A stretch of DNA of 64,000 nucleotides from Planctomycetota bacterium (GCA_016197205.1 JACPWG010000100.1:8250-72249); one strand, 5' to 3'. Positions 4,184 through 52,634 are shown, counted from the first letter of the stretch. Notes: generated from the sequence alone by a model not told the origin. Made by a program: numbers and translations.

Positions 4184-4339
4184 GGTCGGCCTCTTCAAAC
4201 CTCCGCCTACCCGCGCGGCGCTCCAGCGGACGAGTCCGCCCTGCACCCGCTCGCGCACGGACTGTCAGAACCACCTCCTCGCCTTCTCCCGGTGCCACTC
4301 CCGCACCCAACGGGCTCAGTAATGTTCAAGCGGGTCGCC

Positions 4340-4374
4340 CCGTCGGTGCAGGGCGGAAGCCCTGCACCACAAGG
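4340..4374. repeat. REP-like hairpin element CCGTCGG-TGCAGGGC-GGAA-GCCCTGCA-CCACAAGG (copy 1)
   Basis: Perfect 8-bp stem with a 4-nt loop. The same 34-bp unit recurs at 24903, 46385 and 46554, with a variant at 24660. Confidence 0.8.
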
Positions 4375-4676
4375 GCTCGCAGCCACCCGAAAAAGCAGTG
4401 GGAAGCTCGCTCATTCCCTCACCGGCATCTGCTGCTCCCTCTCCCAAGAGCCGATCCGTTCTCTGCACCCTGAAAGGGCTGGCCGGGCAGGCCATGCGCG
4501 CGGGCAGGGACGCTCGCGCCCCCAGGGGTCGTGAGGACAGCGCACGCGCGGTGTTTTTTTTGCGTAGGCCCCAACCGGGGACCCCGCACGCGGGACTCGA
4601 CTCGAAACCAGAGGTCCTGCCCTGCACATGGTCGCCTATCGCCGTCATGGCGTCCCCGCGAGTCAACAGGACCTGC

Positions 4677-7875: not shown

Positions 7876-7972
7876 GGACGATCCCTCGACAGGAAGACCG
7901 CACACACGCGGAGATCAGCGCGAGGAAAGGGTCGGTTTCCTGCTTCGCTGCCCCGCTCTGCATCCTCCTAGT

Positions 7973-8097
7973 GCCCCGTTGACGAGGTCCAGTCACGATG
8001 CCTGGGGGCGCGGGCCTCCGGCCCGCCCGAACGGCCGCATGGGTTACGACCCGCCGTGGCAGAGTTGACGACCGTGTCCGAAGTTCGTCAACGGGCC
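7973..8097 (+). mobile_element. MITE-like element with 16-bp terminal inverted repeats GGCCCGTTGACGAAGT (copy 1, slightly diverged TIR)
   Basis: About 95% identical to 31645-31769. Both ends are rc-complementary. Creates the spurious ORF MPGGAGLRPARTAAW. Confidence 0.75.
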
Positions 8098-12904: not shown

Positions 12905-12979
12905 TGGCTCCCCGGGCAGGACTCGAACCTGCAACACCGCGGTTAACAGCCGCGTACTCTACCATTGAGCTACCGGGGA
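12905..12979 (-). tRNA. tRNA-Asn (anticodon GTT)
   Basis: The rc reads TCCCCGG-TA-GCTCAATGGTAGAGT-A-CGCGG-CTGTTAA-CCGCG-GTGTT-GCAGGTTCGAGTCCTGC-CCGGGGA-G-CCA. It folds into a cloverleaf with a 7-bp acceptor stem, a T-loop TTCGAGT and an encoded CCA. Confidence 0.85.
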
Positions 12980-13464
12980 GTGAAGAGCGGCCATTTTATC
13001 GACGGAGGGGCCGAAGTCAAGCGGTTTCCAGTTCGAGGGCCTGCGCCGGCTCGCGGACCGCCGGCGTTTCATGCGGGAAACGCTTGGGTCGGGCCAGGGG
13101 CGAGCGTGGCGAGGTAGGGCCGGGGAAGACGAAGCGAGCACAGCATCCGCGGGCCCGGGGGGGGAATACAGATGCAGGTCCCGGTGTTCGGAATGCTGTA
13201 CGCGGCCCTGCGCTCGCCGGCAGATGTCCCTCGAAACCGATTCCTGCCACCTGTCCCCGCATGGCACAGGCTGACCTCCGGCTGGGACACTTGCCGGGGA
13301 GGGGATGTGGCAGCGGACGGCTCCACAGCGCGCAAGATTATCGGGAGAAAGGGGATGCGTGGCAGGCGAAAAGCACGCTGCATGTGGCCGCAGATTTGCG
13401 TTTCGACCCGGAGACCTACGAAATGTGAGTCCCCGACACGGCAACCCCTCGTAAGGAGCTCGTC

Positions 13465-13824
13465 ATGACGAAGATGCTTGCTTCCGGACTTGTCGGACTG
13501 GTGATGGCGCTCGCCATGCCCGCCGCGAGCGCCGACCACTACTCGAACACGTACTACCCGCCTTGTGGGTCCACGACCGTCACCTACGCGCCGGCCTACT
13601 ACACGCCGACGTACTACGCACCCACCTACTACACGCCGACCTACTACGCCCCGACCTACTACAGCCCTTGCACGACCACGACCTACTACACGCCCACCTA
13701 CTACCAGACCACGACCTACTGCCCGCCGACCTACTACGCGCCCACCTACTACCGCAGCGGGTCCTCCTTCTCCTATCGCTACTCCAGCGGGTGCTCGTCG
13801 TTCGGCTTCTCCTACCGCCGCTAG
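13465..13824 (+). CDS. small secreted Tyr/Thr/Pro-rich repeat protein (PTYY(A/T) repeats)
   Basis: RBS AAGGAG 7 nt upstream. Signal peptide MTKMLASGLVGLVMALAMPAASA. At least eight PTYY repeats, four Cys, very high GC3, and a terminator directly downstream. Confidence 0.7.
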   Translation: MTKMLASGLVGLVMALAMPAASADHYSNTYYPPCGSTTVTYAPAYYTPTYYAPTYYTPTYYAPTYYSPCTTTTYYTPTYYQTTTYCPPTYYAPTYYRSGSSFSYRYSSGCSSFGFSYRR

Positions 13825-14281: not shown

Positions 14282-14323
14282 AAATCCCAAATCCCAAATC
14301 CCAAATCCCAAATCCCAAATCCC
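14282..14323 (+). repeat. tandem heptamer array (AAATCCC)x5 plus AAATCAG
   Basis: Perfect 7-nt periodicity. An AT-rich island in a GC-rich genome. Confidence 0.9.
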
Positions 14324-14334
14324 AAATCAGGCGT

Positions 14335-14440
14335 GCGCCCGAAACCCAAAATGGAGGAAATAGCCACCGAACACGCCGAAGACGCCGAAATGCACGACAG
14401 GCCGTTCGGTGTCTTCGGCGAGTTCGGTGGCTCGTTCCCC
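14335..14440. repeat. diverged copy of the GC-core of repeat family A (..CGAAATGCAC..GGTGTCTTCGGCGAGTTCGGTGGCTCGTTCCCC)
   Basis: Aligns to 30781-30837 and 36530-36583. Confidence 0.5.
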
Positions 14441-14712: not shown

Positions 14713-14748
14713 CCAAATCTCAATTCTCAATTCTCAATTCTCAAATCC
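14713..14748 (+). repeat. tandem heptamer array AAATCTC-(AATTCTC)x3-AAATCCC
   Basis: Perfect 7-nt periodicity. It abuts the 3' end of the esterase gene. Confidence 0.85.
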
Positions 14749-20949: not shown

Positions 20950-21205
20950 CCCCCCCGGATCACGTCGAAAATCCCAAATCCCAACTCGGGCGAAGGCCCG
21001 AAACCCAAACGGACGACGAAACCACCAAGCCACCAAGGCACGAAGACCACGAAGGACCGTCACTGAGGGGGGCGAGTTTGGCCCGGCCGAAATGCGCCTT
21101 TGTGGTCTTAGTGACTTCGAGTCTTTGTGGTTTCGTCGCCTGCGAATCTGGATACGCTTTCAAGAAGTTCACAGGTAAGTGTCGAAATCCCAAATCTCAA
21201 TTCCG
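20950..21205. repeat. composite intergenic repeat block: AAATCCC heptamers, then a 45-bp inverted repeat (GACGACGAAACCACCAAG...), then AAATCCC/AAATCTC heptamers
   Basis: The arms 20998-21045 and 21094-21138 are reverse complements. It shares CGACGAAACCACA with 30540-30560. Confidence 0.6.
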
Positions 21206-24204: not shown

Positions 24205-24363
24205 TGGGCGCTGCGACCGAGGGGAGAGAAGGACGGGGGACGAACCGCGAAGTACGCCAAGTACGCGAAATTCGGAGAGAGGGAGAGTATAGGACGGCCG
24301 GGCGGAAATGCAACCGAATTCCGGGCCGCGGGGGCGGACCTCGCGGCTCAGGGCCCGTAAAGA

Positions 24364-24565
24364 AACAACAACCCGAACTGAGGCTAAACTCGACCGACGG
24401 CGGCAAATGGCTAGATCATGGCTCCGCGTCCCAGCTAGACACGGGCGAAATTTGAGATTTGAAATTTGACTTTTTGCAATTTGAAATTCGACCCGGCCGC
24501 GTGGGGCGAATGCGAGACTTTTGCACAGAGACGCGGAGACGCAGAGGCCGGGCGCCGAGTCCACC
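24364..24565 (+). repeat. Rpt200 interspersed repeat, copy 1 (about 200 bp; contains an internal AAATTTG/AGATTTG heptamer array)
   Basis: About 96% identical to 51025-51226. The 3' 85 bp are also present inverted at 40604-40688. Confidence 0.85.
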
Positions 24566-24659
24566 GTCCGCTACCGGCGATGATCTCTGGCAACGCACGG
24601 AGAGATCGGTCTTAGCTTCACTTCGGCTTGTTGTAAAGACACCCGTCAGGCACTCACGC

Positions 24660-24693
24660 CAGTCCGTGCAGGCCGGAAGGCCTGCACCCCAAG
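24660..24693. repeat. REP-like hairpin variant (TGCAGGCC-GGAA-GGCCTGCA)
   Basis: Same flanks (CAGTCCG..CACCCCAAGGG) as the other REP copies. Confidence 0.6.
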
Positions 24694-24782
24694 GGCCTCT
24701 CCCCAGCCCTTTCAAGGTGGTGTCGTCACGCTTCCGCCCGCCGCAAGCAGATGGTTCACTTGATCGTGCGGCTTGAGTCCGC

Positions 24783-24812
24783 TTTATGGTGCAGGGCTTC
24801 CGCCCTGCACCC
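24783..24812. repeat. REP-like hairpin (TGCAGGGC-TTCC-GCCCTGCA, inverted orientation)
   Basis: Core identical to the other copies. Confidence 0.7.
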
Positions 24813-24902
24813 GCACTCGCACGGAACCTCCGAAGCACTTCCCCCGTTCCCGTCGAGCCGCCCCCGCACCCAACGGCCTGCGTCATTTCCACCCGGGTTG
24901 TC

Positions 24903-24937
24903 CCGTCGGTGCAGGGCGGAAGCCCTGCACCACAAGG
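24903..24937. repeat. REP-like hairpin, full 34-bp unit identical to 4340-4374
   Basis: CCGTCGGTGCAGGGCGGAAGCCCTGCACCACAAGG. Confidence 0.8.
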
Positions 24938-25100
24938 TCTCGTGGCCGAAGGAGGAAAGCACTGGAAGCTCGCCCATTTCCGCGCACGGGCGGTTGAGGC
25001 TCCGTTTTGCGAAGATCAACTCGTTCGCCCACCTTGAAAGGGCTGGGGCCTTTTCCCTCCGACGAAGGTGCCGAGCCCGGGGTTGTTCCTGTACGGGCCC

Positions 25101-30517: not shown

Positions 30518-30639
30518 GGAGGTCGGAGGGAGTCGGCGACGAGGCCGAACCACGACGAAACCACAGGTTTCACAGCGCGGCGGGGCCGCAGCCAAGCGAC
30601 GACGGAACCACAGATTTCCCAGCGCAGCCGATGGCCGCA

Positions 30640-30837
30640 ACCAAAGCTCGACGAACCACAGATTTCACAGATTACACAGATTGCGACGATTCTCATATGT
30701 GAAATCTGTGCAATCTGTGACACAAGCTCGCAAAAGCTTGTTTTTCTGGCGACGAATTCTCCGCAGAAAATTCGCGAAATCGGCGAAATGCGCGGTTCGT
30801 CTTTCGGTGTTTTCGGCGTCTTCGGTGGCTCGTCCCT
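30640..30837. repeat. repeat family A copy 1: CACAGAT(T) heptamer/inverted arrays plus a 120-bp core (GTGACACAAGC...GAATTCTCCGCAGAAAATTCGCGAAATCGGCGAAATGCGCGGTTCGTCTTTCGGTGTTTTCGGCGTCTTCGGTGGCTCGTCCC)
   Basis: The core is nearly identical to 36466-36583. Confidence 0.8.
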
Positions 30838-31019
30838 TTGGTTGTGGCCAGCGGCTGCCCTGGGGTTTCGTCGACCCCGGGATCACCGAGAAAGGTTGCA
30901 AAAAAACAAGCTTTTGGGCTGTTGTGTCACAGATTCGGATGCGGTGAGATCTCGAGCAAGCCGTGGTTGCCGTGCGCTCCACTTCTTGGGCGCGGAGCAG
31001 CACCCTTTCAGGGCACCTT

Positions 31020-31643
31020 ATGTTCCGCGAAAAGACGATTCAAGAGTTCGTGACCGCGCTTTCCGCCAAGACCCCGACGCCGGGGGGCGGCACGGCTGCC
31101 GCGGTCGCCGGCGCGTTTGGCGCCGCGCTCGGACACATGGTGGTGCAGTTCTCGGTCGGACGCACCGACCTGGCCCCGTACGAGGGGGACCTCGTGCGAC
31201 GCGGCAAGGAACTGGACGGGTTGTCGAGCGATCTCCTGCGGCTCGCGGACGACGACGCCGCGGCGTACGACGCGTACACGGCTGCCGGGAAGCTCCCCCG
31301 GACCACGCCCGAGGAAAAGGAGGCGCGCCGCGCCGCGCGTGAGGCCGCGCTCCGGCGCGCGCTCGAGGTCCCATTGGAGGGGATGCGCAAGGCGCTGGCC
31401 GTGCTGCGGGCGGTGCACTTCCTCGCCGCCCGCTCGAACCCGCACCTCGCGAGCGACGTCGGCGTCGGCGGGCTCCTCGCGTTCGCGGCACTTCGCGGCT
31501 GCCGGTTCAATGTCGACACGAACCTCGCCTCGCTCGCGGACGCCTCGGGGACCGGCCCCGTGCGCGAGGAGGCCGACAAGCTGGAAGCGGACGCGGGCAA
31601 GCTGCACGAGGACCTGCTGGCTCGACTCCGGCCGAGGGCCTAG
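31020..31643 (+). CDS. cyclodeaminase/cyclohydrolase family protein (methenyl-THF cyclohydrolase / FtcD C-terminal-like)
   Basis: MFREKTIQEFVTALSAKTPTPGGGTAAAVAGAFGAALGHMV is the family N-terminus. Confidence 0.8.
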   Translation: MFREKTIQEFVTALSAKTPTPGGGTAAAVAGAFGAALGHMVVQFSVGRTDLAPYEGDLVRRGKELDGLSSDLLRLADDDAAAYDAYTAAGKLPRTTPEEKEARRAAREAALRRALEVPLEGMRKALAVLRAVHFLAARSNPHLASDVGVGGLLAFAALRGCRFNVDTNLASLADASGTGPVREEADKLEADAGKLHEDLLARLRPRA

Positions 31644-31644
31644 T

Positions 31645-31769
31645 GGCCCGTTGACGAAGTCCAGGCACGATGCCCGGGGGCGCGGGCCTCCGGCCCGCGC
31701 GAACGGCCGCATGGGTTACGACCCGCCGTGACAGAATGGACGACTGTGTCCGAAGTTCGTCAACGGGCC
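31645..31769 (+). mobile_element. MITE-like element with perfect 16-bp TIRs GGCCCGTTGACGAAGT (copy 2)
   Basis: Inserted in the 145-bp spacer between the cyclodeaminase gene and purN. About 95% identical to 7973-8097. Confidence 0.8.
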
Positions 31770-33647: not shown

Positions 33648-33764
33648 CGCGAACCCGGAGAGCGACACGCACCCGCGTCCTGTCCGCGGCCGCAAGCACG
33701 CTCGGAAAATCCGCGCGGGGACGCGGAGAGAGCCTCTTCGCCCCTCGAGCACGCTTCCTGGGCT

Positions 33765-33873
33765 CGCGGACTCTGAGCCTTGAACTTTGAGCCTTGTCTG
33801 AACATTGAGCCTTGAGCCTGTTCCCGAGGAACTCCCTGGTTTCCGAACTGCATGAGTTGATTTTTTACGGGCT
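33765..33873 (+). repeat. E-family (TGAGCC-rich) repeat, partial copy E4
   Basis: Aligns to the 3' half of 42499-42709 (GACTCTGAGCCTTGAACTTTGAGCCTTGTCTGAA...CCCTGGTTTCCGA...TTTTTACGGGC). Confidence 0.7.
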
Positions 33874-36269
<2,396 letters not shown>

Positions 36270-36399: not shown

Positions 36400-36583
36400 A
36401 AGCACGGATTTCACAGATTCAACGAGATTACCCCGATTACGAATCTGTGAAATCGTCGTCAATCCGTGACACAAGCCGGCAAAAACTTTTTTTCCGGCAA
36501 CGAATTCTCCGCAGAAAATTCGCGAAATCGGCGAAATGCGCGGTTCGTCTTTCGGTGTTTTCGGCGTCTTCGGTGGCTCGTCC
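36400..36583. repeat. repeat family A copy 2 (CACAGATT inverted arrays plus the 120-bp core)
   Basis: Core 36466-36583 matches 30717-30837. Confidence 0.8.
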
Positions 36584-36694
36584 CTTAGGGTTGCGGTCGT
36601 CGGCTGCACTGGGAAATCCGTGGTTCCGTCGTCGCCGGGCTGCAGCCCAGCCGCGCACTGTCTCTGCGGTTACGGGGCCTCTTCTCCATCGACC

Positions 36695-40307: not shown

Positions 40308-40494
40308 GGCTTAGGGCCCGTAAAGGAACAAGTCAGGCAACTCGGAAACCGTGGACTTCCTCAGGAAAAGGCTCAAGGCTCAATGATCAATTTTCAGGCA
40401 AGGCTCAAAGTTCAAGGTTCAGAGTCCGCGATTCCGTGCCCGGGCTACGTTCCGAGGTGGTCTTTGAGAATTGAACCTTGAGCATTGAAAATTC
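40308..40494 (+). repeat. E-family repeat copy E1 (head TTAGGGCCCGTAAAGGAAC)
   Basis: Shares blocks with 42499-42709(-), 52378-52582(-) and 33765-33873. Confidence 0.8.
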
Positions 40495-40504
40495 TTGTCG
40501 TCTC

Positions 40505-40550
40505 CCTGCGCGTCAAACGAGCACGTTATTTTCTTCAACAAGCCGAAATG
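40505..40550 (-). repeat. 46-bp motif GAAGAAAATAACGTGCTCGTTTGACGCGCAGGGAGACG (copy 1)
   Basis: Also present at 42187-42235(+) and 52328-52376(+). Confidence 0.7.
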
Positions 40551-40603
40551 AAGCTAAAATCGATCTCTCAGTGCGTTGCCCGCGATTATCGCCGGTAGAG
40601 GAG

Positions 40604-40688
40604 GGTGGACTCGGCGCCCGGCCTCTGCGTCTCCGCGTCTCTGTGTAAAAGTCCCGCATTCGACCCACACGGCCGGTCCGAATTTCAA
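40604..40688 (-). repeat. Rpt200 partial copy (3' 85 bp), supplying the stop codon of the gene at 40685-41692
   Basis: The rc matches TTGAAATTCGACCCGGCCGCGTGGGGCGAATGCGAGACTTTTACACAGAGACGCGGAGACGCAGAGGCCGGGCGCCGAGTCCACC. Confidence 0.8.
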
Positions 40689-41692
40689 ATGGCGTAGAGG
40701 TCTTCGCGGCACGGGCACTCGACGACGAGCGCGAAGGGATCGATCCGGATCTGGCCGAGCGTGCGCGCCTCGCGGCCCGGCCGCGGCGACGAGACACAGC
40801 CTCCGGCTTCGAGCGACGCGGTCCAGCGCAGGCGCACCAAGGCCTCCGACTCCGCCACCGGCTCCACCGACATCCAGTCCCGCACCGCGTCGGCGACGAC
40901 CGCGGCCTCGCGGTGTTCGTAGCGCACGCGCCCGCCGCGCTCCGCTGACCCGCCCGCAGGCCACCCCGCCCCCACCGACTCCAGGTCTTCCGGACTCGGC
41001 TCGGGCATCCGCAGCCGCCCCGGCGCCCCGGCCGGCCAACGCGCCGCGCGGCCCCCATTCGCCCGCGCATAGTCGCGCATGGAGGCGATCTCCGTCCAGA
41101 GGTCCTCCTCCGTGCAGCGCCCCCGCCACTCCGACTCGTCGGAGAAGCGTACCCCGATCGCCGCTTCGAGCGCGCGCAGGTCCGGCAGGGTGCGTTCCGC
41201 GGCGAGCCCCTGCCCGAGTTCGGCGGCGGTCGCAGGGCCGGCTTCGTCGGCCCGCGCACCGGCTGCATCGGCGGACGGGAGGCTCGCGGAGGCTTTCTGG
41301 AAGAGACGCCAGTCGACCTCGGCGTCGACGAGCGGCTCGCCGGCGAAGGCGCAGACCCGCACGCGCTCTTGCGGGAGAGAGAGGCCGTGCCGTCGGGCGA
41401 GCAGGACGCCGCCCCAGAGGAGTTGGCGGGCGAGTCGGGGAGCGCAGCGTTCGAACGGGCCCGCCCCTTCGAAAGCGGCCGCCGGGCCGAGCTCGCGGAA
41501 CACGCGTTTCGGGACGGGTTGCGTACGAAAGGCCTCGCGCAGGCCAAGCCCCCAGCGGTCAACCAGGTAGAAGGCGGACCAGACTTCACCGGCGAATTCG
41601 CGCGCGAAGAGGAGGAGCACCATGCCGGAGCGAGGTCCGCCGGAGAGCAGGTACGTACCGAAGAGGGGAGCGTCGTCTGGGACCACCGCCAT
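40685..41692 (-). CDS. hypothetical protein
   Basis: High GC3 to the stop. The ATG at rc 41690-41692 is tentative. No family recognised. Flanked by inverted composite repeat blocks. Confidence 0.45.
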   Translation of the reverse strand: MAVVPDDAPLFGTYLLSGGPRSGMVLLLFAREFAGEVWSAFYLVDRWGLGLREAFRTQPVPKRVFRELGPAAAFEGAGPFERCAPRLARQLLWGGVLLARRHGLSLPQERVRVCAFAGEPLVDAEVDWRLFQKASASLPSADAAGARADEAGPATAAELGQGLAAERTLPDLRALEAAIGVRFSDESEWRGRCTEEDLWTEIASMRDYARANGGRAARWPAGAPGRLRMPEPSPEDLESVGAGWPAGGSAERGGRVRYEHREAAVVADAVRDWMSVEPVAESEALVRLRWTASLEAGGCVSSPRPGREARTLGQIRIDPFALVVECPCREDLYAI

Positions 41693-42186
41693 GCGAAAGG
41701 CGATGGGGAGTGGATCCGTGTAGAGTTCCGAATCGGCGGTGATCCGGCGGGGCGGCTGTCGTAAGGGACGTCGCGTCCGCTCCCCAACCCGCGCGGTGCC
41801 GGCAGGGTCGGTCGGCTCGATGACGACGCCGGGTCCGGAGCCATGGAGAGTGATCGGCTCGCCGGCGTCCGCGCACGGAGGGTGCGTGGACGTTGTGCCG
41901 GGAGCTTGTTCCTGCGGCAAGGGTCTGCTCCTTCTCGGGTAGCCCTGCTGGATCCACCGCGTGGCCAACGCCCGATAACGAAGCGATCTTACCGCGGGTT
42001 TCGCCGCTGCGCAAGTCATATTTTATGCTTTGTAAACTGCGGAGTGCGTGCCTCGTGAGACCGGACTCCTGACCGGCAGATTGACAACCCACCGCGCCGG
42101 GTGATACGATGCGCCGCGTTCCGATAACGACCCTTGGCCCGCCGCCGCCGTCGGCCAACGGTCCGCGCAAGGGGTGCCGCAGCCCA

Positions 42187-42235
42187 AAGGCCCCGTAAGA
42201 AAATAACTCGCTCGTTTGACGCGCAGGAGGGCGAC
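42187..42235 (+). repeat. 46-bp motif copy 2 (CCCGTAAGAAAATAACTCGCTCGTTTGACGCGCAGGAGGGCG)
   Basis: See 40505 and 52328. Confidence 0.7.
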
Positions 42236-42506
42236 ATGAATTCTCGTAACCGTTCACGGGGAGGTACGCGTTACCACAGAGGCACGAGGAGGTTGACATG
42301 TCGATTCGGGGATCTGGCGACTTCTTTTTGACAGGATAACGGGATCAACAGGACCTTCCAATGCGTATCCCGTTGATCCTGTGATCCTGTCAGAAAGAAA
42401 TCCGACGCCATTGCGTGTGGAAAATCCGGTGGTCGCAAAGCCGGGGAAGATCCGCCGTGAGGCCTCCGTTTCCCCGTCCTCCCGTGGTGAACGGTTACGA
42501 ATTCTC
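42236..42506. mobile_element. MITE-like element with about 27-bp TIRs (GAATTCTCGTAACCGTTCACGGGGAGG / CCTCCCGTGGTGAACGGTTACGAATTC) and nested internal hairpins
   Basis: Ends are reverse complements. The interior has GACAGGAT-AACGGGATCAACAGG...CCCGTTGATCCTGT-GATCCTGTC. Confidence 0.55.
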
Positions 42507-42709
42507 AATGCTCAATTTTTAAGACTCAGACAAGGCTCAAGGTTCAATTCTCAATGACCACCATGGAACGTAGCCCGGGCAAGGAATCGCGGACTCTGAG
42601 CCTTGAACTTTGAGCCTTGTCTGAAAATTGAGCATTGAGCCTTGAGCCTTTTCCTGATGAGCTCCCTGGTTTCCGAGCTGCAGGAGTTGTTTCTTTACGG
42701 GCCCTAAGG
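42499..42709 (-). repeat. E-family repeat copy E2, ending 60 bp upstream of dnaE
   Basis: The rc begins CCTTAGGGCCCGTAAAGAAAC. Most complete copy. Confidence 0.8.
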
Positions 42710-45700: not shown

Positions 45701-46268
45701 CAAGGAGCTGCCGGAGCTGGCGGAGCGGATGAAGGACCGGACCCCGGACGGCATGGACGTCACCGTGGGCGGGATGATGACCGGCGTGGTCGCCTCGATC
45801 ATCAAGAACGGGGCGAGCAAGGGCCAGAAGATGTTCAAGTTCAAGGTCCGCTCCCTCGACGGCGCGATCGAGGGGGTGGTCTTCCCGAAGCAGGTCGAGG
45901 CGCTGAAGGACTACGTGAAGGAGGCGAACATCGGCTTCTTCCGCGGCAAGGTCGACTTCCGGAGGGAGGAGCCGTCGCTGCGGCTGAGCGAGTTCATCCC
46001 GATCGAGCGTGCGCGGGAGGCGCTGACCGGGACGCTGACGATCTCCATGAAGGCGATGGGGATGGACGAGGCGGTCCTGGACGCGCTGCGGGACGTCCTG
46101 CTCGAGCACCCGGGTCAGACAAGCGTGCTGCTCGAGATCACGGCGTCGAACGGGATGCGGGTGTCGCTGCGAACGGGGTCGAGCTTCCTGGTGTCGCCGT
46201 CCGACCGGTTCGTGCGGGACGTCGAGGACCTACTGGGGAAGTCGTGTCTGCGGTTCACGCGGAAGTAG
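42771..46268 (+). CDS. dnaE: DNA polymerase III subunit alpha
   Basis: PHP domain HLHLHSHYSLLDGA, polymerase core and OB fold. 1165 aa. Confidence 0.95.
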   Translation: MSVKREDFVHLHLHSHYSLLDGAAKVDEIVETVKKHGMHAVALTDHGNLFGAIEFYQKALKAGVKPILGIEAYIAPGKHTDKRQLPGHEGNYHLTLLVRNERGYKNLLKLTTTAYREGYYYKPRMDKELLARHSDGLLALSGCLNSEVSKALLADDEKRATALAEEYRSIFGKENFFLEVMNHNMPEQDKATRGTVRLAKLLDIPLVATNDSHYVTRADAEAQDALLCIATGKLVSDGDRMKFPTQEFYIKSADEMRAAFPEFPEAIANTMRVAERCHLELKFGEMHLPRFEPPPGQTPHGYLTQLCREGLARRYSPVADAILARLAYELEVIEKMGFSSYFLIVWDFIRFGRESGVPVGPGRGSAAGSLVAFALGITNIDPLRYDLLFERFLNLGRKEMPDIDIDFCQEKRERVIEYVRDKYGKDNVSQIITFGTLKARAAVRDAGRVLGIPLAQVDLIAKKIPAALDMTVQKALHDEAELRDMCAKEPAVQKLFDISRRLEGLCRHASKHAAGVVISDQPLPEIVPLYVNDGEETTQYGMEALGQLGLLKMDFLGLNTLTILDRALRLVKAVRGVDVDLEKIPLDDKRTYEMLSGGESSAVFQLESGGMRDLLMKMRPNTFEDIIAILALFRPGPLQSGMVDSYVRCKHGLEKIQYLHPKLEPILKETNGVILYQEQVMRIANVLGGLTLTEADGLRKAMGKKKPEILAKYREQFVKGAVKNGVPEQIGGEIFTLMEHFAGYGFNKSHSAAYALVSYQNAYMKANFPTELMAAYMSCEMEKTDKIVEYMDECRRLGIAVLPPDVNESDRDFTVVGGKIRFGLGAVKGVGDRSIEAIRDARTKVGRFRSLFQFCEEVELTSLNSGVMECLVKCGAFDSLGARRAQLAAAIDSAMRLGSSSQEDRRVGQASLFGAPARGKGGAGAAVQEVEPVLPQVPDWPEEEQLTYEKESLGFYVTGHPLAKHAECLKLYSTVTIKELPELAERMKDRTPDGMDVTVGGMMTGVVASIIKNGASKGQKMFKFKVRSLDGAIEGVVFPKQVEALKDYVKEANIGFFRGKVDFRREEPSLRLSEFIPIERAREALTGTLTISMKAMGMDEAVLDALRDVLLEHPGQTSVLLEITASNGMRVSLRTGSSFLVSPSDRFVRDVEDLLGKSCLRFTRK

Positions 46269-46602
46269 GGGCCCACCGCGCGCGAACCGTCTTTGCGAGG
46301 TCGAACCTGCGGGGGTGGTTGAACGCGCGGAGACCGCTCCCTCACGGTCGCGGTTCGGATTCCGCTGCCGCGGGCCGAGCGGCGTTGTGGTGCAGGGCTT
46401 CCGCCCTGCACCGGGCCACTCACGATGCCGGCGCCAGGGGCCCACCGCGCGCGAATCGTCCTTGCGAGGTCGAAACTGCGGGGGTGTTTGAACGCGCGGA
46501 GACCGCTCCCTGACGGTCGCGGTTCGGATTCCGCTGCCGCGGGCCGAGCGGTATTGTGGTGCAGGGCTTCCGCCCTGCACCGGGCCACTCACGATGCCGG
46601 CG
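46269..46602 (+). repeat. tandem direct duplication (2 x about 167 bp, about 90% identical), each unit ending in a REP-like hairpin
   Basis: Unit 1 is 46269-46436 and unit 2 is 46437-46602. It starts immediately after the dnaE stop. Confidence 0.85.
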
Positions 46603-46635: not shown

Positions 46636-47385
46636 ATGGACCCGCTCGACCCCACCACTGCGCTCACGCGCCGTCAGATGACCGCCGTCGACAAGCTGGC
46701 AACGGCACGCCTCGGCATGCCCTCGCTCCTCCTCATGGAGAACGCGGGGCGCGGGATCGCGGACGTGGTGCGGGCCATCGCCGGCGCGGGTCCGGGCCGG
46801 CCGCCGCTCATCCTCGTCGTGTGCGGTCACGGGAACAACGGGGGGGACGGGTACGTCGTCGCCCGCCGCTTGCTGCTCCACGGCGATAGCGTGCGCGTCC
46901 TCGTCGTCGGCCGGGAGGACGAGATCCGCGGCCGCGGTGACGCGGGCGTGAATCTCGAGATCGCGGCGCGCATAGGCGTGCCGATCGAGTTCACCGACAG
47001 GATGGACCGGCGCGACGTGGAGGCGCGGATCGCCTCCGCGTGGTTCCTCGTGGACGCGCTCTTCGGCACCGGCCTCTCGCGCCCGGTCGAGGGGATGGCG
47101 AAGGACGTGATCGGCTGGATGAACCAACGCGGCCGGTCCGTGCCGATCGTCGCGGTGGACATCCCGTCGGGCCTTGACTGCGACACGGGCGAGGTCCTCG
47201 GCGACGCCGTCCGCGCGGTCGTGACCGTCACGGTGGCCGCTCCGAAAACGGGTTTTTTCCGTGGCGAGGGGCCGCGTCTGGTCGGTGAACTGCGACTCGT
47301 CGATTTCGGCGTCCCGCTCGGCCCGCTGCGCGCCGCGCTCGCGGAGTCGCCGGAGGGGCGGGCCGACCAGAGATTTGAGATTTGA
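46636..47385 (+). CDS. nnrE: NAD(P)H-hydrate epimerase (YjeF N-terminal domain)
   Basis: VVCGHGNNGGDGYVVARRL...VDALFGTGLSRPV...VAVDIPSGLD. The stop lies inside an AGATTTG heptamer array. Confidence 0.8.
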   Translation: MDPLDPTTALTRRQMTAVDKLATARLGMPSLLLMENAGRGIADVVRAIAGAGPGRPPLILVVCGHGNNGGDGYVVARRLLLHGDSVRVLVVGREDEIRGRGDAGVNLEIAARIGVPIEFTDRMDRRDVEARIASAWFLVDALFGTGLSRPVEGMAKDVIGWMNQRGRSVPIVAVDIPSGLDCDTGEVLGDAVRAVVTVTVAAPKTGFFRGEGPRLVGELRLVDFGVPLGPLRAALAESPEGRADQRFEI

Positions 47386-47415
47386 GATTTTGCAATTTGA
47401 ATTTTGAGATTCGAT
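47371..47415 (+). repeat. AGATTTG heptamer array / Rpt200 core fragment (AGATTTGAGATTTGAGATTTTGCAATTTGAATTTTGAGATTCGA)
   Basis: Matches the Rpt200 internal block GAAATTTGAGATTTGAAATTTGACTTTTTGCAATTTGAAATTCGA. Confidence 0.75.
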
Positions 47416-47599
47416 CCGCTCCTCTCCTTCGCACTGTCCCAGCTCGATCTCGGATCGCTCGCGAGGACCGTCCAACAAGTCGCGCCCCCAGCCGGTTCCG
47501 CCCTATCCGCCTCATCCGCTAACTTCGCCCGCTCTCCCGGCTCCGCTTGTTCTCCTGGGTCGTGGACACTTCAACACTCGGCAAGGAGGGAGGCCACTC

Positions 47600-48721
47600 A
47601 TGCCCCGCAAGCTGCTCTTGCTTTCCGCCTCGTCGGGCGCCGGCCACAACCGCGCCGCGGAGGCCCTGCGCGAGGCCGCCAAGGAGCTCTTCCCCGACGT
47701 CGAGGTCCACTATCACGACACGCTGGAATTCACCGGCAAGCTCTTCGCCAAGCTTTATCCGAAGTCCTACCTCGTCGCGGTCAACAAGATGCCGGCCCTC
47801 TGGGGCTATTTCTACGCGAAGACCGACCGGTGGTCGGACAAGGGGCTCGGAGGCCGAGCGATCGACGCCTTCGATCAGCGCAACGCGCGCAAGCTCGCGA
47901 ACTTCGTCCACGACCTCAACCCCGACCACGTCATCTGCACGCACTTCCTGCCGATGGACCTGCTCTTGACCAAGCGGGGCCGGACGAAATACAACCATCC
48001 GCTCTCCGTCGTCGTCACCGACTACGACGTCCACAAGTTCTGGGTGCACGACGGCGTGGACCGGTACTTTGTGGCCACCGACGAGGTCAAGTGGCAGCTC
48101 CAGCGAAAGGGCACCCCGGAGAAGCAGATCCGCGTGTGCGGGATCCCGATCCACCCGGTCTTCTCGAAGAAGCCCGACCGGGCCGAGGTCGCCGCGCGCC
48201 TGGGCATCCGAAGCGACCTGCCGACGGTGCTCGTCCTGTCCGGCGGCTTCGGGATCGGGCACATCGAACGGGTCGTGGCGGACCTGGCGCGGCTGCCGGC
48301 GGAGCTGCAGCTCGTCGTGATCGCGGGCAGGAACGAGAAGCTGCGCCAGGAGGTCCAGGCAGTCGAGACTCCGCCGACCGTCGCGAAGAAGGTATTCGGC
48401 TTCGTGACGAACATCCAGGACTTCTACGCCTCGGCGGACCTCGCCGTCACGAAGTCCGGCGGGCTGACGGTCTCGGAGTGCCTGGCGATGGGGCTGCCGA
48501 TGGTGATCTTCGCGCCGATCCCCGGGCAGGAGGAGCGAAACTGCGACTACCTGCTGGAGCAGGGGGCGGCGGTGAAGGCGAAGGATCTGGCGACGTTGGA
48601 GTGGAAAGTGCTATCGCTCCTGCGGGACCCGGCAGCGCGGTTGCGGATGGCCGAGCGCGCGGCCGCGACGGCGCGCGCGCGGGCGGCGCACGACATCTTG
48701 AAGGACGTGCTCGGAGGGTGA
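47600..48721 (+). CDS. MGDG-synthase family glycosyltransferase (GT28; UgtP-like diacylglycerol glycosyltransferase)
   Basis: LLLLSASSGAGHNRAAEAL...VICTHF...GGFGIG...DLAVTKSGGLTVSECLAMGLPMVI. Confidence 0.8.
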   Translation: MPRKLLLLSASSGAGHNRAAEALREAAKELFPDVEVHYHDTLEFTGKLFAKLYPKSYLVAVNKMPALWGYFYAKTDRWSDKGLGGRAIDAFDQRNARKLANFVHDLNPDHVICTHFLPMDLLLTKRGRTKYNHPLSVVVTDYDVHKFWVHDGVDRYFVATDEVKWQLQRKGTPEKQIRVCGIPIHPVFSKKPDRAEVAARLGIRSDLPTVLVLSGGFGIGHIERVVADLARLPAELQLVVIAGRNEKLRQEVQAVETPPTVAKKVFGFVTNIQDFYASADLAVTKSGGLTVSECLAMGLPMVIFAPIPGQEERNCDYLLEQGAAVKAKDLATLEWKVLSLLRDPAARLRMAERAAATARARAAHDILKDVLGG

Positions 48722-48815
48722 GCGCGGGCGGGGGCGAGAGGCGTGGTGCGCCGGCAACTTTCGAACCCCGTCGGCCCCACGGGTTGGGCGAAGCGTCGCC
48801 CGTGCGGCGGGTCGC

Positions 48816-48866
48816 GCGGGCCGGAGGCCCGCGCCCCCAGGCATGGTGTCTGAACTTCGTCAACGC
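48816..48866 (-). mobile_element. partial MITE copy (half of the 16-bp-TIR element)
   Basis: The rc matches CGTTGACGAAGTTCAGACACCATGCCTGGGGGCGCGGGCCTCCGGCCCGCG. Confidence 0.6.
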
Positions 48867-49115
48867 GGCACGAGGAACGGGCCCTTGAGGGTTTGGGGGG
48901 TACCCTCGGGCGTGTGGAGCGGCGCGGACAGCCAAAGCGTTGACAGCCCCTCGCGCCTGCTGCTAGGATTCCCTTCGCTCTCTGGCCCCCGCGCGCGCGG
49001 AGAGTCCCCCTCTCCCGCGAAGCGGGTGAGGGCTGGGGTGAGGGCCCAAACCAGAGCAGCCCCACCCCTCTCTCGACGGACCTCGTTCCCCGCAGGCATC
49101 GGAGACACGCGCCTC

Positions 49116-51008
49116 TTGTTCCGAACGATCCTTGATCGCCTGCGGGGTCGGTGGCACGGCTCGGACGTCGCGGTCCTTCTCGGACTTGTCGCGTTCGTTG
49201 CGAGCGCGCTCCTGGTCGCGTGCCGCTGGTTCGCCGACTACACGCCGGCCGTCGAGATCCGGCTCTCCCCGCTTGCCCTCCCCGGCTACGCGCTTCTCTC
49301 CCTCAGCCGGGCCCTGGTCTCCTACGTCATCTGCATCGGCTTCGCGCTCCTCACGGCCTACGCGTCGGCCCACAGCGCGCGTGTGGAGCGGATCCTGATC
49401 CCGCTCCTCGACGTGGGGCAGTCCCTGCCGATCCTCGCCTTCATGCCTGGCTTCGTGCTCGCGCTCATCGCCCTCTTCCCCCATTCAAACGTCGGGCTCG
49501 AGCTGACGAGCGTCCTCATGCTCTTCACCTGCCAGGCGTGGAACCTCTGCTTCGGCTTCTACTATTCGCTCCGGGCCGTTCCGCACGAGCTGCGCGAAGT
49601 CGCGGACGTGTATCGCGCGGGTAGGTGGCGCACGTTCAGGTGCCTCGAGCTGCCGTCCGGCGTGCTGCCACTGGTGTGGAACAGCGTCCTCTCGGTCGCC
49701 GGCGGCTGGTTCTTCCTCGAGGTCTGCGAGAACTTCAAACTGGGCTCGCGACATTTCCGGCTGCCGGGCCTCGGGGCCTATCTCGGCGAGGCGGAGCGGA
49801 GGAAGGACGTGGCCGCGGTCCTGCTCGCGATCGGCGCGATGGGGCTGATCGTGCTCGCGCTCGACCTGCTCCTCTGGCGCCCGCTCATCGTGTGGGCCCA
49901 GCGCTTCAAGCTGGAGGAGTCGGGGGCGGAGGACCTGCCGCGGTCGAAGGTCCTGGATTGGTTCCGCGAATCGAAGGTGATGTTGCCGGCGGTCGTGGCG
50001 GCCGTCCGCGGGCTCGTGGGGGCCGTGGACGCGGCATTCGTGCGCGCCTCGCACGCGGCGGCCGCGGCGACCGCAGCGGCCCGGCTGGACGAGCACGCGG
50101 CGGCGCTCACCAAGCTGCTCGACCGCTTCGGCGCGGCCGCGACGTCGGTGGCCGGCGCGCTCGTAACGCACCGTGCGATCGCGCCCGCGGCCCGACGGCT
50201 CTCGCTCGCGGTGACGCGCCTGGCCGCGCCCGGAGGCGGGCAGCGCCTGCTCCTGGCCGCGCGCGGGACCCTTCGCCGCACGGTCTTCGGCGGCGCCGCC
50301 GCCGTCGGACTCGCGGCCGGCGCCTGGCTGCTCGCTCTGCTCTGCCGGCTGGAGCTGGCGGACTGGGGGCGGGTCATCCTTTATTCGCTGTACACCCTCG
50401 GGCGGGTGCTGGCGGCCGTCGGGGTCGCAACGCTTTGGACGGTCCCGGTCGGCGTCGCGATCGGTTCGAGCCCGCGACTCGCGCGCGTGCTGCAGCCGAT
50501 GGTGCAGTTCCTCACCTCGTTCCCCGCCTCCATGCTCTTCCCCTTGGCGAGCGCCCTCTTCCTGGAGGCCGGTGGGAGCCTGAACATCCTGTCGGTCCTC
50601 CTCATGATCCTCGGCGGCCAGTGGTACATCCTCTTCAACATCGTCTCAGGCGCCATGGCGATCCCCGCGGACCTGCGGGTCGCGGCCGACGTCTACCGCC
50701 TGCAAGGGTGGCGGCGATGGAAAGCGCTCATCCTCCCCGCGATCTTCCCGAGCCTCGTCACCGGCTGGGTCACGGCCGCGGGCGGTTCCTGGAACGCGTC
50801 GATCATCACGGAGTACTTCGAGTACGGAAACGAAGTGCACAAGACGAAGGGACTCGGCGCGCTCATCACGCAATCGGCGACCGAGGCGAACTACCCCCTC
50901 CTCGCCGCCAGTTCCCTCACCATGGCGCTGGTCGTGGTCGCCATGAACCGCGTCTTCTGGCTGCGCGTCACGCAGTACGCCGAGAGGCGGTACTCGCTTA
51001 CCGCCTGA
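49116..51008 (+). CDS. ABC transporter permease with duplicated transmembrane domains (NitT/TauT-like), start uncertain (TTG at 49116 proposed)
   Basis: Two BPD-transporter-like halves (..PILAFMPGFVLALIA.. and ..FLTSFPASMLFPLASALFL..). No ATPase or binding-protein gene is adjacent. Confidence 0.7.
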   Translation: MFRTILDRLRGRWHGSDVAVLLGLVAFVASALLVACRWFADYTPAVEIRLSPLALPGYALLSLSRALVSYVICIGFALLTAYASAHSARVERILIPLLDVGQSLPILAFMPGFVLALIALFPHSNVGLELTSVLMLFTCQAWNLCFGFYYSLRAVPHELREVADVYRAGRWRTFRCLELPSGVLPLVWNSVLSVAGGWFFLEVCENFKLGSRHFRLPGLGAYLGEAERRKDVAAVLLAIGAMGLIVLALDLLLWRPLIVWAQRFKLEESGAEDLPRSKVLDWFRESKVMLPAVVAAVRGLVGAVDAAFVRASHAAAAATAAARLDEHAAALTKLLDRFGAAATSVAGALVTHRAIAPAARRLSLAVTRLAAPGGGQRLLLAARGTLRRTVFGGAAAVGLAAGAWLLALLCRLELADWGRVILYSLYTLGRVLAAVGVATLWTVPVGVAIGSSPRLARVLQPMVQFLTSFPASMLFPLASALFLEAGGSLNILSVLLMILGGQWYILFNIVSGAMAIPADLRVAADVYRLQGWRRWKALILPAIFPSLVTGWVTAAGGSWNASIITEYFEYGNEVHKTKGLGALITQSATEANYPLLAASSLTMALVVVAMNRVFWLRVTQYAERRYSLTA

Positions 51009-51024
51009 CGCGCTCGAAAACAAA

Positions 51025-51226
51025 ACAACAACCCGAACTGAGGCTCAACTTGACCGACGGCGGCAAATGGCTAGATCATGGCACCGCGTCCCAGCTAGAC
51101 GCGGGCGAAATTTGAGATTTGAAATTTGACTTTTTGCAATTTGAAATTCGACCCGGCCGCGTGGGGCGAATGCGAGACTTTTACACAGAGACGCGGAGAC
51201 GCAGAGGCCGGGCGCTGAGTCCACCG
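51025..51226 (+). repeat. Rpt200 copy 2, forming the 3' end and C-terminal tail of the ADH gene
   Basis: About 96% identical to copy 1. Confidence 0.85.
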
Positions 51227-52294
51227 CGCCAGCTCCGCATCCACCACGAGCACCGCCGCCCCCTGGTGCTTTCCCCTGCGCAAGGAGTCGAGCGCCTCAT
51301 TGGCCGCCTCCAACGCGAAGGGAGTCACTTGCGTGCGCACCGGGATCCGCGGCGCGAGCGCAAGGAAGTCCTCCGCGTCCCGCCGCGTGAGGTTGGCGAC
51401 GGAGCGGAGGACGCGTTCCCCCCAGAGCAGTTCATAAGGGAAGGCGGGGATCTCGCTCATGTGGATCCCGCCGCAGACCACGACCCCGCCCTTGGCGACC
51501 GAGCGGAGGGCGGCGGGTACCAGTGCGCCGACCGGAGCGAGGACGATGGCGGCGTCCAGCTCCTCGGGCGGCCGGACGTCGGAGGCGCCCGCCCATTCGG
51601 CGCCGAGCGAACGGGCGAAGGCCTGCCCCGCGTCGTCGCCCGCGCGCGTGAAGGCGAAGACCCGGCGGCCTTGATGGCGCGCGACCTGAAGGAGGATGTG
51701 GGCCGCGGCGCCGAAGCCGTAGAGGCCGAGGCGACGGGCGTCTCCGGCCATGACGAGCGACCGGTAGCCGATGAGGCCGGCGCAGAGAAGCGGGGCGGCT
51801 TCGAGATCGCCGTAGCCGTCCGGGATCGAAAAACAAAACCGCGCGTCGGCCGCACAGAATTCGGCGAAGCCGCCGTCGAGCTGGTAGCCCGTGAAGCGCG
51901 GTTCGTCGCAGAGATTTTCTCGGCCGCCGGCGCAGAAGCGGCAGGTGCCGCAGGTGGACCCGAGCCACGGCACGCCGACGCGGTCGCCCACCTTCCAGCG
52001 CTTCCTCGTTGGCCCAGACCCCGCCCCAGCCATTGCCAAGCTGCTGCCCGTGGTCGCGGTAGCGCCTGCGCTCCCCCCGTCACCGCCGACCTCGACCACG
52101 CTCCCGACGATCTGGTGGCCGGGGATCACCGGGGACTTCGCCGGCGGCAACTCGCCATCGACCACGTGCAGGTCGGTCCGGCACACCGCGCACGCATGGA
52201 CGCGGAGCAGGAGCTGCCCGGGCGCGGGCCGCGGCGTGGGGACGTCGGCGGCCCGGAGCGGCGTGCGCGGGGCGTCGAGGAGCATGGCGCGCAT
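51095..52294 (-). CDS. zinc-dependent alcohol dehydrogenase (MDR family) with a Gly/Ala-rich insertion and a repeat-derived C-terminal tail
   Basis: LRVHACAVCRTDLHVVDGE...PGHQIVG (GHE-like)...GxGxxG region GLYGFGAAAHIL. The last 45 aa or so are encoded by Rpt200. Confidence 0.8.
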   Translation of the reverse strand: MRAMLLDAPRTPLRAADVPTPRPAPGQLLLRVHACAVCRTDLHVVDGELPPAKSPVIPGHQIVGSVVEVGGDGGSAGATATTGSSLAMAGAGSGPTRKRWKVGDRVGVPWLGSTCGTCRFCAGGRENLCDEPRFTGYQLDGGFAEFCAADARFCFSIPDGYGDLEAAPLLCAGLIGYRSLVMAGDARRLGLYGFGAAAHILLQVARHQGRRVFAFTRAGDDAGQAFARSLGAEWAGASDVRPPEELDAAIVLAPVGALVPAALRSVAKGGVVVCGGIHMSEIPAFPYELLWGERVLRSVANLTRRDAEDFLALAPRIPVRTQVTPFALEAANEALDSLRRGKHQGAAVLVVDAELARWTQRPASASPRLCVKVSHSPHAAGSNFKLQKVKFQISNFARV

Positions 52295-52327
52295 CGCAGC
52301 CTCCACCTGCCCGGGCCTGAAGGGTTA

Positions 52328-52376
52328 GGGCCCGTAAGAAAATAACTTGCTCGTTTAACGGGCAGGGGAGCAACAG
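52328..52376 (+). repeat. 46-bp motif copy 3 (CCCGTAAGAAAATAACTTGCTCGTTTAACGGGCAGGGGAGCAACAG), preceded by TTAGGG
   Basis: See 40505 and 42187. Confidence 0.7.
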
Positions 52377-52377
52377 G

Positions 52378-52582
52378 AATTCTCAATGCTCAATTTTCAA
52401 GACTCAGACAAGGTTCAAGGTTCAATTCTCAATGACCACCATGGAACGCAGCCCGGGCACGGACTCGCGGACTCTGAGCCTTGAAATTTGAGCCTGGTCT
52501 GGAAATTGATCATTAAGCCTTGAACCTTATCATGAAAAGCTCCCTGGTTTCCGAATTGAATGGGTTGTTTCTTGACACGCCC
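52378..52582 (-). repeat. E-family repeat copy E3
   Basis: Same block order as the plus strand of 42499-42709. Confidence 0.8.
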
Positions 52583-52634
52583 TTGCCGTCCTCGGCCGCG
52601 AAGGCGAGTCGCAAGCTTGTCCCGCGGCCGCCCC

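Follow-up and report, generated by a model that had tools for sequence, protein, structure and literature searches.

The DNA analysed here, referred to as the window, is a stretch of 64,000 nucleotides from a Planctomycetota bacterium, with a G+C content of 68% and long non-coding gaps between well-defined genes. It holds three copies of an interspersed repeat, Rpt200, with unrelated flanks: copy 1 lies upstream of a gene, copy 2 between two convergent genes and copy 3 nested in another repeat. We focus here on the nature of this element and on the ends of the genes beside it. The copies and the genes concerned are the following.

24366-24633, plus strand: copy 1, element positions 1-268, from the alignment of copies
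51026-51226, plus strand: copy 2, element positions 1-201, right 67-70 bp deleted, 195/201 positions identical to copy 1 in element coordinates
40536-40693, minus strand: copy 3, element positions 111-268, left 110 bp deleted, 142/158 positions identical to copy 1
48843-51008, plus strand: ABC transporter permease gene, convergent with the ADH gene, its stop unaffected by copy 2
51095-52294, minus strand: ADH, zinc-dependent alcohol dehydrogenase, annotated length 399 aa with the tail (MBI3270869.1), Pfam ADH_N and ADH_zinc_N
51098-51226, minus strand: element-encoded tail of ADH, 43 codons, RWTQRPASASPRLCVKVSHSPHAAGSNFKLQKVKFQISNFARV
40685-41920, minus strand: conserved hypothetical gene, 411 aa (MBI3270864.1, GenBank annotation)
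46636-47385, plus strand: nnrE, NAD(P)H-hydrate epimerase, 249 aa (MBI3270866.1), Pfam YjeF_N 1.4e-44, P0121 100% identical

Copies 1 and 2 had been recognized in the initial annotation as a near-identical 200-bp repeat (24364-24565 and 51025-51226), and they are indeed alike over a direct repeat of 204 nt at 97% identity (24363-24566 and 51023-51226), a similarity that cannot be chance. The repeat is thus real, but its boundaries had been drawn too short. The inverted fragment, likewise given as only 85 bp, pairs with copy 1 over 158 nt (24476-24633, 90%), as against 90 nt with the shortened copy 2; copy 1 therefore runs to 24633, about 67 nt past its earlier right boundary, and the unit is 268 bp. 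Alignment of the copies, combined with direct inspection, identifies copy 1 as the complete element. It is bounded by imperfect terminal inverted repeats of 27 nt, with 22 of the 27 positions complementary between the element ends, and contains an A/T-rich core.

24366-24392, plus strand: left terminal inverted repeat of copy 1, CAACAACCCGAACTGAGGCTAAACTCG, 22/27 complementary to the right end
24447-24495, plus strand: A/T-rich central core, a heptamer array GAAATTT/GAGATTT followed by TGCAATTTGAAATTCGACCCG
24607-24633, minus strand: right terminal inverted repeat of copy 1, CAACAAGCCGAAGTGAAGCTAAGACCG, pairing with CAACAACCCGAACTGAGGCTAAACTCG

A degenerate consensus of the terminal repeat matches four sites in the window, which are all four element ends present there, and nothing else in the window, compared with no match in 100 shuffles. 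Each of the six frames of the element contains at least one stop, so that no frame is open from end to end, and translations of its three longest open stretches (58, 68 and 71 codons) have no match among 5.8 billion proteins; the recurrent open reading frames previously noted through the element do exist, and none of them occurs in the protein collection. As single-stranded DNA, the element folds into one long hairpin of −54.1 kcal/mol, compared with −42.4 ± 3.9 kcal/mol for shuffled sequences (z = −3.0). Promoter and terminator scans around copy 1 returned no promoter-like or terminator-like site.

Alleles for comparison were provided by four contigs from Logan assemblies of one run, SRR12113391, on which a literature search gave no match. 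These informative alleles came from homology and cluster look-ups, the exact-protein look-ups of window ADH, nnrE, B3_4 and P0121 having returned no record. The window itself belongs with a Planctomycetes MAG in GenBank, its NnrE being 100% identical to MBI3270866.1. The contigs correspond to the window as follows.

L001: positions 1-1129 equal window 52352-51224, 100%
L090: window 42221-40693, 100% over 1529 nt
L091: window 24388-21187, one mismatch in 3202 nt
L092: window 47378-48836, 100%

Together the four contigs cover 7.3 kb and show one substitution outside two deletions; at this level of sequence agreement they are essentially the same strain as the window. All four end inside repeats, as expected for multi-copy sequence. 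The element ends seen in L001 and L090 agree with the terminal inverted repeats of the window, and at the loci of copy 2 and copy 3 the element lies outside coding sequence in these contigs, with its gene-facing end intact. The deletion alleles occur in the MAG alone and the intact alleles in the Logan contigs alone.

With both sets of alleles, the target of each insertion can be read.

24358-24365, no strand: left target-site duplication of copy 1, TAAAGAAA, 7/8 against TAAAGACA
24634-24641, no strand: right target-site duplication of copy 1, TAAAGACA
51018-51025, no strand: left target-site duplication of copy 2, AAACAAAA, 10 nt past the ABC permease stop
40528-40535, no strand: right target-site duplication of copy 3, AAGAAAAT (minus-strand reading)
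40314-40535, minus strand: copy of a second repeat family, Rpt-B, that hosts copy 3 in its left terminal repeat, GGGCCCGTAAAGAAAYAAC

For copies 2 and 3 the second duplication is found across the two assemblies: the right flank in L001, after ...TTGTTG, is AAACAAAA, and the left flank in L090 reads GGGCCCGT-AAGAAAAT-CAACGACCCG. A target-site duplication of 8 bp is thus present at three of three insertions, with 7/8, 8/8 and 8/8 matching positions. The empty site of copy 3 was rebuilt by joining the L090 left flank, one AAGAAAAT and the window right flank, giving ...GGGCCCGTAAGAAAATAACGTGCTCGTTTGACGCGCAGG..., which aligns without gaps across GGGCCCGTAAGAAAATAAC to uninterrupted paralogues at 42188 and 52327. 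These paralogues are the left ends of the second repeat family, and copy 3 is therefore nested in the terminal repeat of that family. A search for an orthologous empty site found none. The targets TAAAGAAA, AAACAAAA and AAGAAAAT are all octamers with at least six A, whereas octamers with at least six A or at least six T make up only 0.27-0.30% of window positions; that all three targets are of this rare A-rich kind indicates either a strong target preference or survival in such sites alone. These data show three independent insertions at unrelated loci in the window.

Rpt200 has the structure that defines a bacterial MITE, the partner transposase apart: it is small and without coding capacity, carries terminal inverted repeats, duplicates a target of fixed length, occupies multiple unrelated loci and, at copy 3, can be set against a paralogous empty site. 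A transposase whose gene lies in another part of the genome presumably mobilizes it in trans. IS families that make 8-bp duplications are IS1, IS6, IS66, IS256, ISL3 and IS1595, and the length of the duplication suggests that the mobilizing transposase belongs to one of them. The window ORFs contain no transposase domain, and the window holds no IS200/IS605-like gene and no transposase or matching terminal inverted repeat that would fix the IS family.

Other identities were considered and rejected. First of all, REP/BIME sequences are imperfect palindromes of 20-40 bp that occur in clusters and are associated with RAYT transposases, whereas Rpt200 is a 268-bp unit that has terminal inverted repeats and makes 8-bp duplications. 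Second, an RPE-type in-frame insertion into coding sequence is at odds with L001 and L090, where the insertions of copy 2 and copy 3 lie downstream of the native stops. Third, membership of a described structured-RNA family can be set aside, as Rfam at the gathering threshold gives a single match in the whole window, the tRNA at 12908-12979, and none in the element. Finally, a longer left end that would take in GGGCCCGTAAAG upstream of copy 1 was discarded, this motif being the terminal repeat of another family and the insertion target of the element.

Beyond this strain, no copy of the element was found in GTDB genome scans, a JGI metagenome scan or the protein search. A 26-mer from the element interior that all three copies share exactly occurs at no locus in the GTDB genomes, a set that evidently does not include the source genome, and the degenerate terminal-repeat pattern gives five single matches in unrelated phyla among GTDB species genomes, with about four expected by chance. 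In the JGI metagenomes an internal 22-mer matches 81 loci, none of them a real copy: compared with the whole element by BLAST, they share the purine-rich 22-mer alone or align weakly over 57-79 nt at 73-81%. In the literature that could be searched, no such MITEs are described from Planctomycetes.

At the ADH locus, the gene had been described as reading some 45 codons into copy 2; it does read into the copy, but over 43 codons. ADH homologues are 325-344 aa long and end a few residues past ...AAVLV. The allele in L001 (P0001) ends ...DAELARGAR, that is ...VLVVDAELARGAR-TGA, and is followed about 85 nt past the stop by a G+C-rich hairpin and then by UAUUUUGUUU. The terminator-like reading of this hairpin comes from its fold alone (z = −1.3), a simple terminator scan of L001 having reported none. 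After UAUUUUGUUU, L001 enters the intact right end of the element, ...CAACAAGCCGAAG..., and continues into the interior up to the contig end. As the same 8 nt, AAACAAAA, stand on both sides, the element inserted in the U-rich tract after the terminator-like hairpin, roughly 85 nt beyond the ADH stop and between the convergent genes. The window lacks L001 positions 1130-1302 (173 bp), made up of about 103 bp of flank and about 70 bp of element, and with them the last three ADH codons, the stop, the terminator-like hairpin and one target duplication.

51224-51227, no strand: 173-bp deletion junction, 3 nt of microhomology (CCG in plus-strand reading, CGG in minus-strand reading)

The junction in the window reads GCGCGG followed directly by TGGACTC. 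With the stop lost in the deletion, translation enters the element and adds 43 residues. Elsewhere in the same protein, the GroES-like domain contains an insertion of low complexity, some 24 residues long, GGDGGSAGATATTGSSLAMAGAGSGPT (approximately 52006-52090, residues ~74-100); it is found in the MAG and Logan alleles and is absent from all aligned homologues.

The second gene end is that of the conserved hypothetical gene, which had been placed at 40685-41692 with its last codons and TGA in the inverted fragment. The last one or two codons and TGA do lie in copy 3, while the gene itself extends to 41920. The window protein ends ...EDLYAI, where the element supplies the I codon and the stop codon and may also supply part of the A codon. 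The L090 allele (P0277), on the other hand, has 435 aa and ends ...EDLYVARIWIENALPALGAGELEYAADPRA, encoded by ...CREDLYVARIWIENALPALGAGELEYAADPRA-TAA. Distant homologues from an exhaustive HMMER search go on with ARIWIENALPxL after REDLY (...REDLYTARIWIENALPxL...) and thus share the end of P0277, which is therefore the native one; the window protein lacks the last 26, conserved, residues of the native allele. Past the stop, L090 reads GGGCCCGT-AAGAAAAT-CAACGACCCGAACAAAG, which is the left end of the element after the same AAGAAAAT that stands on the right side of copy 3. The element here lies 8 nt past the TAA, inside the terminal inverted repeat of the other repeat. The window is without 206 bp at this point, comprising 96 bp of flank (the last 26 codons and the stop) and 110 bp of element, and its junction, CTCTACG followed by CCATTTG, has a single shared G. 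As the deletion removes the native end, the hypothetical protein closes with A-I-stop within the element.

The third gene end, that of nnrE, is different in kind. As previously noted, the gene ends QRFEI-TGA inside a GAGATTT array, which has no element ends.

47370-47418, plus strand: core-like heptamer array, GAGATTT about six times, containing the last 4-5 nnrE codons and TGA, unchanged in L092

The core fragment that had been proposed here (47371-47415) does match the element, at 80% ungapped over 49 nt, but its status as a fragment is uncertain. The alignment score of 29.5 exceeds that of shuffled sequences (14.3 ± 2.6, maximum 23.5), yet it is only slightly above the scores of the other heptamer arrays in the window, which reach 23.5 against the element; the array is probably best regarded as one of many (GARMNTT)n arrays and not as a proven element fragment. 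The length of NnrE homologues ranges from 227 to 267 aa, and their C-terminal end is not conserved. The closest relatives, with 59% and 51% identity (L002 and L003), keep the order dnaE-nnrE-MGDG synthase, share synteny with the window and lack the element, and at this identity they are too distant to give the native nnrE end. The spacing from nnrE to the glycosyltransferase gene, 13 nt in L002 compared with 214 nt in the window, does indicate that sequence was added after nnrE. Remodelling of this gene end by the element cannot be shown.

The initial annotation had held that insertion of the repeat remodelled three gene ends. Two of these, in ADH and the hypothetical gene, are indeed repeat-derived, but their proximate cause appears to be deletion. 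It had also been proposed that the tails be compared with those of related genes that lack the repeat; near-identical alleles with native C-termini exist, and this outcome favours an origin of the tails in the repeat. We thus conclude, with considerable confidence, that Rpt200 is a non-coding MITE and that the gene ends were fused to its interior by later deletions, not by insertions.

The deletions would have arisen after insertion, each spanning one element terminus. Each reaches roughly 70-110 bp to either side of the terminus and has a junction microhomology of 1-3 nt. A plausible course of events is a break at or near the terminus, caused by attempted transposase cleavage or by processing of the element hairpin, followed by two-way resection and then by end joining on the 1-3 nt of microhomology. 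Copies 2 and 3, having lost one terminal inverted repeat, should be immobile as a result.

Replication slippage across the hairpin-forming element could also have made the deletions, with no part played by a transposase. In bacteria, long palindromes are prone to deletion; the element is able to fold into a long hairpin, and each deletion removes one of its arms. The direct repeats used in slippage are normally longer than the 1-3 nt at these junctions, however, and the deletions reach about 100 bp into flanks that are not palindromic. The data fit both mechanisms; we favour the break and rejoining at the terminus, and consider slippage the less probable of the two, though it keeps a real chance of being correct.

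It is rather improbable, on the other hand, that the deletions are artefacts of the MAG or Logan assembly and that the real genome has intact gene ends and complete elements. The concern is a natural one, as a single substitution in 7.3 kb is accompanied by two indels that both lie at repeat ends, and repeats, in which all four Logan contigs break, are classic trouble for short-read assembly. The junctions, however, join unique coding sequence to element interior with only 1-3 nt in common, a join that a de Bruijn graph cannot make without reads containing it, whereas repeat-induced misjoins fall within shared sequence and not at a boundary of unique and repeat DNA. Both junctions, moreover, leave ORFs that were annotated by GenBank.

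Direct insertion of the element or its fragments into the 3′ ends of the three genes, replacing the native ends, is what the window alone would suggest, with coding sequences that run straight into the repeat, but we regard it as very unlikely: the same insertions lie outside coding sequence in L001 and L090, with the gene-facing end intact and a perfect 8-bp duplication, the shortened copies lack exactly that gene-facing end, as deletion and not transposition predicts, and at nnrE there is only a heptamer array. Equally hard to credit is that Rpt200 is a non-mobile functional module (for instance a regulatory hairpin, a gene for a small RNA or a protein-binding array), for although it folds better than shuffled sequences, has an A/T-rich core with a 7-bp period like arrays in other intergenic repeats, and belongs to a class that is sometimes co-opted in this way in bacteria (PMC5896051, PMC2229807), it bears the marks of transposition (sharp ends, terminal inverted repeats, 8-bp duplications and a paralogous empty site), its copies lie in three different contexts, two of the three tolerate the loss of 25-40% of their length, and the Rfam, promoter and terminator scans described above are all negative. 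A secondary function alongside mobility is possible.

Given deletion at the terminus as the preferred reading, a bolder proposal would be that the termini of this MITE serve as active break points within a natural population of Planctomycetes and that breaks induced there by the transposase or the hairpin, once repaired by end joining, rewrite 3′ gene ends much faster than point mutation does. Of the three copies in 64 kb, two have terminus-spanning deletions with 1-3 nt of microhomology at the junction, and these, together with one substitution, are the only differences over 7.3 kb; we nevertheless put the proposal forward as speculative and on balance doubtful. Were the break-point reading true, stops and terminators would be removed and C-termini added or trimmed on population time scales.

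It is instructive to set these results beside known systems. Rickettsia palindromic elements (RPEs) are short palindromic mobile repeats that are translated within host proteins, having inserted in frame inside coding sequences where they are kept as internal peptide segments. Here, in contrast, the insertions lie outside coding sequence, and translation reaches the element only after deletion. Correia elements of Neisseria and the enterobacterial ERIC/IRU elements are intergenic, MITE-like sequences of 100-300 bp with terminal inverted repeats, which form hairpins and are able to influence transcripts. In Correia elements the duplicated target is TA, and IHF sites and promoters are present, whereas Rpt200 duplicates 8 bp of A-rich target and has no promoter-like site that we could find. 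Both Correia and ERIC/IRU elements are often located near gene ends (PMC2229807).

The closest parallel comes from Coxiella burnetii, in which QMITE1 and QMITE2 are small, non-coding, multi-copy elements with terminal inverted repeats, mostly intergenic, with copies that share 1-50 bp with the 3′ ends of functional genes (PMC5896051). In one strain an indel joins enhC to QMITE2 and gives a C-terminal extension of 33 element-encoded residues, whereas a sister strain has a stop codon before the same insert (PMC5896051). This is the same situation as that of ADH here and a direct precedent, although the phyla differ (Gammaproteobacteria and Planctomycetes), so that sequence similarity is not expected, and the links here are 173- and 206-bp deletions that also remove one element end. 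In-frame MITE fusions are, furthermore, listed in reviews as a known outcome (PMC2229807). Both the kind of element and its effect on gene ends are thus already established, and nothing that is known about MITEs is altered; only the apparent rate of terminus-centred deletions is possibly new.

What the present case offers is both alleles in hand, showing how a small transposon near a gene end can give rise to a new C-terminus through a follow-up deletion. There is also a practical consequence. The last 43 residues of the 399-residue ADH in GenBank are transposon sequence, which calls for caution in family alignments and structure work, and the same caution applies to the GenBank hypothetical protein, which is without its conserved last 26 residues. 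The few A/T-rich octamers that a genome of 68% G+C offers attract the insertions, among them a terminator-like U-rich tract and the terminal repeats of other mobile elements, and repeats drawn to so few sites therefore pile up and nest at gene boundaries.

Several other repeats in the window deserve description. Rpt-B, the second interspersed family, is about 257 bp long and bounded by inverted GGGCCCGTAAAGAAAYAAC ends; its interior has GAGCCTT/GAACTTT heptamer arrays. Apart from the copy that hosts copy 3, its members are as follows.

52327-52583: Rpt-B copy
42188-42708: Rpt-B copy
33764-33987: Rpt-B copy

The GGGCCCGTAAAGAAAYAAC motif has seven matches in the window (24351, 25082, 33856, 40314, 42686, 52328 and 52564), compared with none in shuffled sequences, and both L001 and L090 break inside Rpt-B. 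TTA/TAA stands next to these ends in most cases, suggestive of a 3-bp duplication like that of IS5-like MITEs. Rpt-B ends also adjoin stop codons. In tgt (33874-35442, minus strand), the TAG at 33874-33876 consists of the flanking TA and the first G of the repeat, and the TAA of the hypothetical gene in L090 (1607-1609) stands directly against GGGCCC; stop codons seem to be among the few T(A/T)A targets in this G+C-rich genome.

The surroundings of copy 1 are a nest of repeats that fills the 900-bp gap between a TPR gene and the next gene (24351-25100). Inverted ends of the Rpt-B type, flanked by TCA, at 24351 (plus strand) and 25100 (minus strand) enclose copy 1 and a block of hairpin repeats (24759-25046), which is 75% similar to 4235-4482. 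In the gap between dnaE and nnrE (46267-46602) there is a perfect tandem duplication with a unit of 169 bp (96% identical) that includes the hairpin GGTGCAGGGCTTCCGCCCTGCACC; L003 has a gene of the metallo-beta-lactamase fold at this position. A REP-like palindrome, (G)GTGCAGGGC-TTCC-GCCCTGCAC(C), occurs at several intergenic sites and is also present in the related Planctomycetes MAG GCA_016220045.1, and thus, unlike the 268-bp element, beyond this strain.

4344-4384: REP-like palindrome
24784-24811: REP-like palindrome
24908-24935: REP-like palindrome
46385-46413: REP-like palindrome
46554-46582: REP-like palindrome
L003, 4277-4393: REP-like palindrome

Heptamer arrays of the form GARMNTT, from two to seven units long, are found in at least four repeat families and in non-coding DNA only. 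On the other strand they read AAATCCC, AAATCTC, AATTCTC or AAGGCTC, with TTGA every 7 nt, and they could be protein-binding arrays or slippage-prone cores.

14282-14328: GARMNTT array
14714-14747: GARMNTT array
20969-20984: GARMNTT array
21184-21205: GARMNTT array
24447-24488: GARMNTT array
33774-33819: GARMNTT array
40368-40421: GARMNTT array
42593-42650: GARMNTT array
47370-47411: GARMNTT array
51107-51148: GARMNTT array
52378-52425: GARMNTT array

A further family of 130 bp, with 74-93% identity, is present at 7967-8097, 31639-31769 and 48743-48875 (minus strand); one copy lies between the MGDG-synthase-like and ABC permease genes, and L092 ends in it. At 13547-13782, a tandem array of about 11-13 units of 15 nt lies in the plus-strand ORF 13429-13824, with G+C of 0.40, 0.61 and 0.90 at the three codon positions, and would encode a repeat peptide of the (P/A)TYY type. 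Finally, further repeat pairs involve 30741-30841, 36489-36589 and 14377-14438. A pair of 101 nt at 97% identity, 5.7 kb apart, and an adjacent inverted pair of 68 nt (30575-30642 and 36589-36656) flank the block from 30.8 to 36.5 kb that contains the FTCD, formyltransferase, tgt and SpoIID-like genes.
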